This document shows positions 12,465 through 13,185 of a DNA stretch of 59,645 bases, in pieces. How positions within the stretch are numbered: position 1 is the stretch's first letter; every line of letters begins with the position of its first letter. A program made the position numbers and the translations under genes. The notes under the pieces were generated by a model. It saw only the letters and a list, made by a program, of their open reading frames with translations, ran no database searches and was not told where the DNA came from. The DNA is from a virus. Its lineage: Duplodnaviria > Caudoviricetes. The DNA lies in IMG/VR virus record IMGVR_UViG_3300037478_000826, positions 1-59,645 of that record, one strand, 5' to 3'.

Positions 12465-12811
12465 CGCCCGGAGACCGCATCAAGCGAGCGCGTATCAACG
12501 TGGAGATGACACAGCAGGAACTGGCATCCGCCATCGGCGTGTCCGTCGGAGCGGTGAGGCACTGGGAGAAGCGCGGTAATGCGCCCAAGCGCCCCAGCGT
12601 GAAACTTGCGCTCTGCCGACGCCTCGACATGACGGTGGGCGAGCTGCTGTTCGGCGACGCCATGCCGGGCGACGACTCCGCCATCGTGCTGCGGTTCTCG
12701 CCGGCCCTGATGGCGCACGTCGACGCACTGCTGACCACCGGCCTGTGGGGCCAAGACCGCGCCGCCGTCGTCGAACGGCTGGCGTGCCAGACACTGAGGA
12801 GCTTATTGTGA
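12461..12811 (+). CDS. XRE-family HTH transcriptional regulator
   Basis: IKRAR..MTQQELASAIGVSVGAVRHWE. Confidence 0.88.
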   Translation: MTPGDRIKRARINVEMTQQELASAIGVSVGAVRHWEKRGNAPKRPSVKLALCRRLDMTVGELLFGDAMPGDDSAIVLRFSPALMAHVDALLTTGLWGQDRAAVVERLACQTLRSLL

Positions 12812-13185
12812 CGAGAGACGTAGCAATCCACGTGATGCGGGCGGCGTTCGCGCGACTCGACGACGAGCAGCGCGGCAATCTGCGGTGGCACGCCGCAGAG
12901 GGGACGCGGATTTTCTGCGGCGTCCCAGCGGCCAGAGAGAAGTACATCAGCCCCGACGGCTACGGGTGACCCGCCGCCCTCGCCGCGTGTCGGCGAGTAA
13001 CGTTCGAGCCAGACGAAGAAATGCCCGCCAGATACTACGACGCCCACGTTGTGCGCATGGCGGACCATGATCCATGCGGCCCCGAAAACTACGTTGGGGA
13101 GATCATGCGCAACTCGTACTGTGATGCCGTCGCGACGCTCGACGAGGACACGATGCGGAGCCTGATGGCCGAGGTGGCCGCGTGA
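12808..13185 (+). CDS. Candidate selenoprotein (125 aa, in-frame TGA at 12967-12969); alternatively a pseudogene or two short ORFs
   Basis: GAGGAG SD and GTGA coupling at both ends; single in-frame TGA in DGYG*PAALA; frame stays open 71 more codons; SECIS-like hairpin follows. Confidence 0.6.
12970..12997 (+). promoter_or_regulatory. Putative bacterial SECIS element
   Basis: 9-nt spacer after TGA, perfect 7-bp stem CTCGCCG/CGGCGAG, loop CGTGT with G at position 2 followed by U; 16 nt between UGA and loop. Confidence 0.55.

Follow-up and report, generated by a model that had tools for sequence, protein, structure and literature searches.

Cells are known to recode UGA to selenocysteine (Sec), as are a few eukaryotic viruses, such as the molluscum contagiosum and fowlpox viruses, whose glutathione peroxidase homologues are selenoproteins. 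Bacterial selenoprotein genes, such as fdhF and fdhA of formate dehydrogenase, contain an in-frame UGA and have homologues in which cysteine is found. Stop codons also occur inside phage genes, as the full-length A1 protein of phage Qbeta is made when a UGA is read as sense, and stop-codon-recoded phages, in which TAG or TGA is reassigned throughout the genome, carry in-frame stops. The Sec insertion sequence (SECIS) of bacteria lies in the coding region and is characterized, in a published account (PMC13188914), by a stem of 4-16 bp and a loop of 3-9 nucleotides (nt) with G followed by G or U, located 16-37 nt from the UGA. Here we describe a gene with an in-frame TGA at positions 12808-13185 of the viral record IMGVR_UViG_3300037478_000826 (59,645 nt, analyzed at its full length and called the window below), which an earlier note, made from the sequence letters, had put forward as a candidate phage-encoded selenoprotein gene.

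We consider it likely that 12808-13185 is a Sec-decoded gene of a probable new phage-encoded family of Sec/Cys proteins. The case rests on the comparison of the family and not on the hairpin of the window alone: the in-frame TGA is conserved, Cys and TGA are paired at the same column, a hairpin following the TGA is conserved, and TGA is used as a normal stop elsewhere. As in bacterial selenoprotein genes, there is an in-frame UGA with Cys-containing homologues, and all 11 TGA genes that were read fit the bacterial coding-region SECIS described above; unlike the bacterial genes, these are carried by phages, have short hairpins (4-8 bp), would draw their decoding machinery from the host and match no known selenoprotein family. 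The proteins of the eukaryotic viruses are likewise virus-encoded and reliant on host Sec machinery, but those are captured host enzymes with a SECIS in the 3' untranslated region, whereas here no cellular relative was found and the putative SECIS is in the coding region. In Qbeta, the UGA parts a complete coat protein from its extension and no Cys is aligned with it, whereas here the UGA is inside one domain and at a Cys column. In contrast to stop-codon-recoded phages, TGA remains the main terminator here and ends 9 of the 11 family genes.

No report of a phage-encoded selenoprotein was found in a full-text literature search. The BSepDB paper describes a database of 111 bacterial selenoprotein families, and phages or viruses are mentioned neither in its main text nor in that of two reviews, supplementary family lists aside. 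The new elements would be the phage as carrier and the unnamed protein family.

The anatomy of the gene given in the earlier note (ribosome-binding site, GTG start, TGA at codon 54, 71 open codons beyond it, terminal overlap and 7-bp hairpin) proved exact when the letters were reread. The features of the gene are as follows.

12796-12801, plus strand: Shine-Dalgarno-like GAGGAG, 6 nt ahead of the GTG start, by direct reading

12808-13185, plus strand: the entire gene, 125 codons across the internal TGA and a terminal TGA

12916-12918, plus strand: Cys37 codon TGC, the family-invariant Cys in an I-x-C-G motif (alignments A1, n=18, and A6, n=19)

12967-12969, plus strand: in-frame TGA at codon 54, the proposed Sec codon, from family comparison

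12970-12984, plus strand: codons for P-A-A-L-A right after the TGA, corresponding to P-[AS]-x-[LMV]-A of the family

12979-12997, plus strand: SECIS-like hairpin with a 7-bp stem, 9 nt past the TGA, -10.8 kcal/mol on its own

13021-13185, plus strand: C-terminal part, called by gene callers as a separate open reading frame (ORF) of 54 amino acids (aa) (P0002), with a motif Y..A......D..T.R..M that aligns with the C-termini of full-length homologues

The GTG start (12808-12810) overlaps the TGA of the upstream gene (12809-12811), and the terminal TGA (13183-13185) overlaps the GTG of the next gene at 13182 in a GTGA. Codon 54 is preceded by YISPDGYG and followed directly by PAALA, with no start codon in between. 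The hairpin is formed by CTCGCCG (12979-12985) and CGGCGAG (12991-12997) around the loop CGTGT (CGUGU in the RNA; 12986-12990), which begins 16 nt after the UGA.

An exhaustive HMMER search with the read-through protein against 1.84 billion representative proteins yielded 24 matches, comprising the two halves of the window gene, five long repeat proteins and 17 small relatives. The long repeat proteins (P0003, P0009, P0014, P0022 and P0023) were judged spurious on the basis of repeated matches, unrelated Pfam domains and, in P0003, Cys columns that do not align. Eleven of the 17 small relatives are full-length (105-157 aa) and align over both halves, so similarity extends to both sides of the TGA. 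The residue under the TGA in these 11 is Cys in six (P0011, P0013, P0015, P0020, P0024 and P0025), Trp in two (P0005 and P0016), Ala in two and Thr in one. Four of the other relatives (P0008, P0010, P0012 and P0017) end exactly ahead of the TGA column, and P0019 and P0021 end nearby, where the alignment is ambiguous. The column itself lies 12-17 residues past the invariant Cys in the context G-[U]-P-[AS]-x-[LMV]-A; in A6, both the Pro that follows the TGA column and the final Ala of this motif are invariant. The Trp of P0016 is a translation artefact, as the DNA (L003/L004) reads TGA at this codon, TGG at a true Trp of the same gene and TAG at the gene end; the 90% cluster of P0016 also contains the N-terminal 50 and C-terminal 61 residues as separate proteins.

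Of 47 short candidates scored with a profile of the N-terminal halves, 23 passed, each of them ending one column before the TGA. About a dozen of these represent lineages beyond those read as DNA, and some are abundant, one sequence being present on 109 contigs and another on 40. A search with the A1 profile, in which 8000 candidates were scored, added one protein. No homologue was found in a word-indexed search with the read-through protein, nothing was confirmed in viral and genome scans with the read-through protein or A2, and there was no match in a scan of viral contigs with P0029 or when two Cys forms were compared by tblastn with 50,697 GenBank phage records. In these searches, the family turned up on uncultivated phage and metagenome contigs alone, and it is unnamed.

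The TGA forms were read at the DNA level with a pattern consisting of an N-terminal motif, TGA and Pro-[AS]-x-[NTN]-Ala, which has one match in the window and none in 100 shuffles. In the viral collection, this pattern yielded eight matches at seven loci, all eight of which translate to family members with 60-95 further codons past the TGA and the family C-terminal motif, and when TGA was replaced by TGY, the pattern yielded none. The sole match in genomes of 185,579 species (L012) is a chance match and no family member. A protein pattern blind to the TGA/Cys column, [KAQ][GKA]TPICC[GQ], gave 53 stretches, seven of which were confirmed; all seven are TGA forms, including one new lineage (L020). 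In total, there are 11 distinct TGA genes (window, L004, L005, L006a, L006b, L006c, L007, L008, L009, which equals L011, L010 and L020) from 10 non-redundant phage or metagenome records, with 27-63% mutual identity and with locus G+C contents from 40% to 65%. The earlier note had suggested a search for homologues with Cys or TGA at the aligned position, and both were found, Cys in six full-length proteins and TGA in ten other genes.

Two records carry more than one member of the family. The 85-kb complete phage record of L006 contains three paralogues (1803-2144, 4611-4982 and 4998-5351), each with an in-frame TGA and a hairpin, one of which was noticed by eye; the second and third are neighbors with 15 nt between them, and the TGA stop of the second (4983-4985) is inside an ATGA. 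A 60-kb record (G002) has both a Cys form (L002, 4001-4396, TGC) and a TGA form (L007, 7322-7660), about 13.6 kb apart.

The TGA is genuine in the DNA of the window. A contig of another sequencing run (X2) is identical over 12804-13036, TGA included, and a variant contig (X4, about 94% identical) keeps both the TGA and the hairpin, so the TGA is not an assembly slip. The differences of X4 number 12 in 12809-12942 and zero from 12943 to the contig end at 13000, a part that spans the TGA and the hairpin. Runs X3-X5 cover small shares of the stretch, parts of it are without cover in X2-X4, and no RNA run was listed among those containing it.

The downstream half is under coding constraint in the same frame as the upstream half. 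Its strongest conservation sets in immediately after the TGA, with the invariant Pro, and there is no conserved start codon after the TGA, an in-frame TTG being present in 4 of 11 genes. Between L005 and L009, downstream differences fall 26, 19 and 44 times at codon positions 1, 2 and 3, with 22 of 58 changed codons synonymous, and the Cys forms are single uninterrupted proteins. These comparisons show coding constraint on both sides of the TGA. A second TGA ends 9 of the 11 family genes and TGA closes most long frames in every locus, from which it follows that the genetic code is not changed. The stop of the family gene overlaps the next start (ATGA or GTGA) in 7 of 9 genes checked.

A hairpin is present after the TGA in 11/11 genes, with a stem of 4-8 bp and a loop of 5-6 nt beginning 16-21 nt after the UGA. 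Position 2 of the loop is G in all 11, and position 3 is U in ten and G in one (N-G-[U/G]); the loops are CGUGU and CGUGA (three genes each), CGUGC, CGGGU, UGUCA, UGUAA and AGUUAA. The stems fall into five different sequences, and across the genes all three codon registers are seen at the loop start. The loop CGUGU is encoded as (GC)G-UGU-C in the window and as CGU-GU(G) in L007, and since it occurs in different codon registers, the loop is not explained by protein conservation. Stem pairs are kept at positions 1-4 across the five stems, in an alignment that was anchored by hand on the loop and in which 7 of the 11 share one stem; a MAFFT alignment of the hairpins (A7) was mis-registered, and pairs were counted by script instead. 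The earlier note had looked to a covarying hairpin in homologues for support, and the hairpin does recur, with changing stems and a constant loop start, in 11/11 genes.

The chance occurrence of such hairpins was estimated in several ways. A narrow hairpin description is matched by 308 of 3145 background TGA triplets (9.8%) and by 6-29% of synonymous recodings of each gene, and the chance product over four distinct stems is about 5e-4. L020, which was found after the description had been fixed, matches it with a chance of 14.7%. When the hairpin is imposed as a constraint, the 50 nt that start at the UGA have a folding energy <= -7.5 kcal/mol in 10/11 genes. Published constraints on the bacterial SECIS call for a loop of 3-9 nt with G in its first two positions, a stem of >=4 bp, a spacing of 16-37 nt and a minimum free energy <= -7.5 kcal/mol (PMC13188914), and all 11 genes pass them.

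A number of these results weigh against a Sec-decoded gene, or at least limit what the hairpin can contribute to the argument. The published constraints are also passed by 685 of 1162 background TGA triplets (59%), and the narrow description was set after nine sequences had been seen. The folding energy of the hairpin region of the window compared to shuffles gave no signal (z 0.17 and -0.02), and the hairpins alone are small, at -2.9 to -13.0 kcal/mol, with folding energies that are not exceptional. The stem CACC/GGUG is common to 7/11 hairpins and also encodes a conserved T-R-x-V, such that only five stems are independent. The Cys form L002 (TGC) is without such a hairpin, which speaks for the Sec reading, but this is a single-sequence control. 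In neither the window nor seven loci did Rfam return a SECIS match at the site. In the protein family, Ala or Thr at the column in three homologues means that the residue is not indispensable to the fold. The third-position G+C content (GC3) across the 17 codons from the TGA to the ATG at 13021 is 0.65 compared to 0.83 on either side, which is a weak and ambiguous sign. Finally, that the hosts use Sec (selA, selB, selC and selD) is presumed ahead of any host assignment, and this is the main gap in the argument.

For the window itself, a perfect 7-bp hairpin in loose SECIS geometry follows 10 of 633 TGA triplets on the plus strand and 14 of 541 on the minus strand, or about 2%. The window hairpin taken alone is unremarkable and proves little. 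The SECIS argument of the earlier note therefore stood in one part, as the geometry that it described is present and recurs in 11/11 genes, and was weak in the other, as the window hairpin used as evidence by itself folds no better than shuffles and has this background of about 2%. Two structural results carry no weight. A minus-strand Rfam SECIS_2 match at 12759-12794 (15.7 bits, E 4.9) is noise, and a covariance model (R1) built on the seven CACC-stem sequences ranked the L010, window and L008 sites first through coding sequence, with the stem deleted, and so held no structural information.

Among the five phage records searched, window included, there was no selA, selB or selD and no tRNA-Sec above the family cut-off, in line with the earlier note, which had seen no Sec machinery in the phage. 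The Sec machinery must then be that of the host. The loci carry tRNAs for Leu(UAA), Cys(GCA) and Ala(CGC), none of which is a UGA suppressor. A tRNA-Leu(UAA) is located at 8937-9008 on the minus strand of L009, 34 nt upstream of the family gene, and a tRNA-Cys(GCA) at 698-769 on the minus strand of the record of L010. The nearest terminases are at most 32% identical and come from mixed hosts, and gave no host assignment.

The chief rival, which we regard as unlikely, is a programmed read-through of the UGA without selenium, in which a near-cognate tRNA (Trp, Cys or Arg), perhaps aided by the hairpin, would read the UGA at low frequency, so that a protein of 53 residues would be made along with a minor one of 125 residues, as for the A1 protein of phage Qbeta. 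Such a mechanism is equally consistent with a conserved TGA, with a coding downstream half and with the hairpin, the phages bring no Sec machinery, and one record has a tRNA-Cys. In addition, the base after the UGA is always C, a leaky context, but this C is explained by the invariant Pro (CCN) that follows. What separates the two mechanisms is the identity of the aligned residue and of the loop. Cys occupies the column in 6/11 full-length homologues, within a conserved G-x-P-A motif, and the loop keeps the G-[U/G] of the bacterial SECIS consensus, from which we infer that Sec rather than another residue is inserted at codon 54. Cys aligned with UGA is a standard mark of Sec sites that is independent of the SECIS (PMC9312934).

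It is improbable that the locus consists of two separate small genes, or of a split gene, with the downstream part translated from its own start (ATG 13021) or by re-initiation. Gene callers do list the halves separately, the window does have the in-frame ATG at 13021, and the dip in GC3 falls between the TGA and this ATG, but the most conserved downstream stretch (P-A-x-L-A..R.V) begins next to the TGA and precedes any start codon, the in-frame TTG is limited to 4/11 genes, the Cys forms are uninterrupted and the structural model folds as one domain. Nonsense decay, sequencing error or a genome-wide reading of TGA as sense (code 4 or 25) is scarcely credible. A single window could not rule on these explanations, and some database entries do translate the codon as W, but they are contradicted by the family data: TGA recurs at one column in 11 genes that are 27-63% identical, 23/23 short homologues end there, the independent contig has the same TGA, and TGA ends 9/11 family genes and closes 67 of 85 window ORFs (ORFs kept by a GC3 filter).

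If the gene is decoded with Sec, as we favor, 12808-13185 would be translated into one 125-residue all-alpha protein with Sec at codon 54. Most members of the family (about 105-157 aa) have the UGA, and a minority Cys, at a fixed column at the N-terminal end of a predicted helix. The hairpin with the N-G-[U/G] loop, 16-21 nt after the UGA, would be the SECIS that recruits SelB and Sec-tRNA(Sec), both taken from the host, as the phage brings no Sec machinery of its own.

This would have several consequences. The phages would depend on Sec-using hosts and could be matched to them. Gene callers would systematically cut such genes in two, as the 23/23 short database entries that were examined would be halves. 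A new small Sec/Cys protein of no known fold would be opened to study, and eleven natural SECIS variants from phages of differing base composition would form a compact set for the study of SelB recognition. A more far-reaching idea, which we find doubtful, is that the family represents the first phage selenoproteins, widespread in environmental phages, and that the UGA and SECIS go beyond supplying a catalytic residue and act as a gate, Sec decoding being slow and set by host SelB, tRNA-Sec and selenium, so that it would report the state of the host. The full-length protein, together with translation that reaches the overlapping start of the next gene (a regulator of the XRE type in the window), would then be produced only in a selenium-replete, Sec-competent cell, and the gene would mark phages confined to Sec-using hosts.

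An AlphaFold2 model made from an 18-sequence alignment shows one all-alpha domain across the TGA site (mean predicted local distance difference test score 81.5, predicted template modeling score 0.76), with residue 54 just ahead of helix 55-60. The read-through protein has no match in Pfam or PHROGs, and the family has none in NCBIfam, PADLOC or the PDB sequences. No helix-turn-helix (HTH) family was detected at E up to 1 in the read-through protein or its halves, nor in the 18 or 19 family members. Foldseek returned no fold match (best E 1.6 in the PDB and 2.6 in BFVD), and an ESM Atlas search with P0013 gave no usable lead. It is a guess from sequence that the Sec/Cys residue, with Cys37 and perhaps the nearly invariant His28, might form a redox or metal-binding center.

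In the window, the gene is flanked by two regulators, and in other phages, small Cys-rich ORFs occur beside its relatives.

12461-12811, plus strand: upstream neighbor, XRE-type HTH protein (Pfam HTH_3, E 2.7e-7)

13182-13526, plus strand: downstream neighbor, XRE-type HTH protein (Pfam HTH_3, E 3.7e-15)

L004 3428-3625: small Cys-rich ORF with CxxC pairs

L008 2970-3161, minus strand: small Cys-rich ORF with CxxC pairs

L010 2974-3180, minus strand: small Cys-rich ORF with CxxC pairs

L002 from about 4396: small Cys-rich ORF with CxxC pairs

A small Cys-rich ORF that resembles a zinc ribbon thus stands directly after the family gene in four contexts and not in the window. Gene neighbors vary by phage, being XRE regulators in the window and small Cys-rich ORFs, replication-type genes or further paralogues elsewhere. 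Because the relatives occupy other neighborhoods, linkage to XRE genes is not a trait of the family, and the redox- or selenium-dependent switch that the earlier note had tied to the XRE regulators was not borne out. One X4 contig, of depth 3 and with 32 letters on its shorter side, connects 13173 with 13495, skipping 321 nt; as this junction drops most of the downstream XRE gene, a relative of the phage may lack it.

The record that contains the gene is viral and linear, with an estimated completeness of 83% and 69% G+C. Its genes include those for the large terminase, portal, head protease, major head protein, tail sheath, tape measure, a DnaB-like helicase and a DNA methyltransferase, and this set of structural and replication genes identifies a tailed phage. 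ARAGORN found no tRNA genes in the window, and when the window was scanned for further ORF pairs that share a frame and are joined by a TGA, nothing but adjacent ordinary genes was returned. The gene two positions upstream (11916-12464) has no Pfam family at E up to 1, and contains a 67-nt stretch that is 80-82% identical to ASCH domain protein genes of Mycobacterium phages, which was the sole match in a DNA search of the region.

Two further observations concern the records of relatives. At 561-628 on the plus strand of L006, there is a match to the type II hammerhead ribozyme (44.2 bits compared to the Rfam gathering score of 37, E 7.6e-6). In L004, a low-GC contig, positions 1-648 and 784-1389 encode, as judged by eye, a protein with a PARP-like H-Y-E pattern and a PP-loop (SGGVDS) ATPase.

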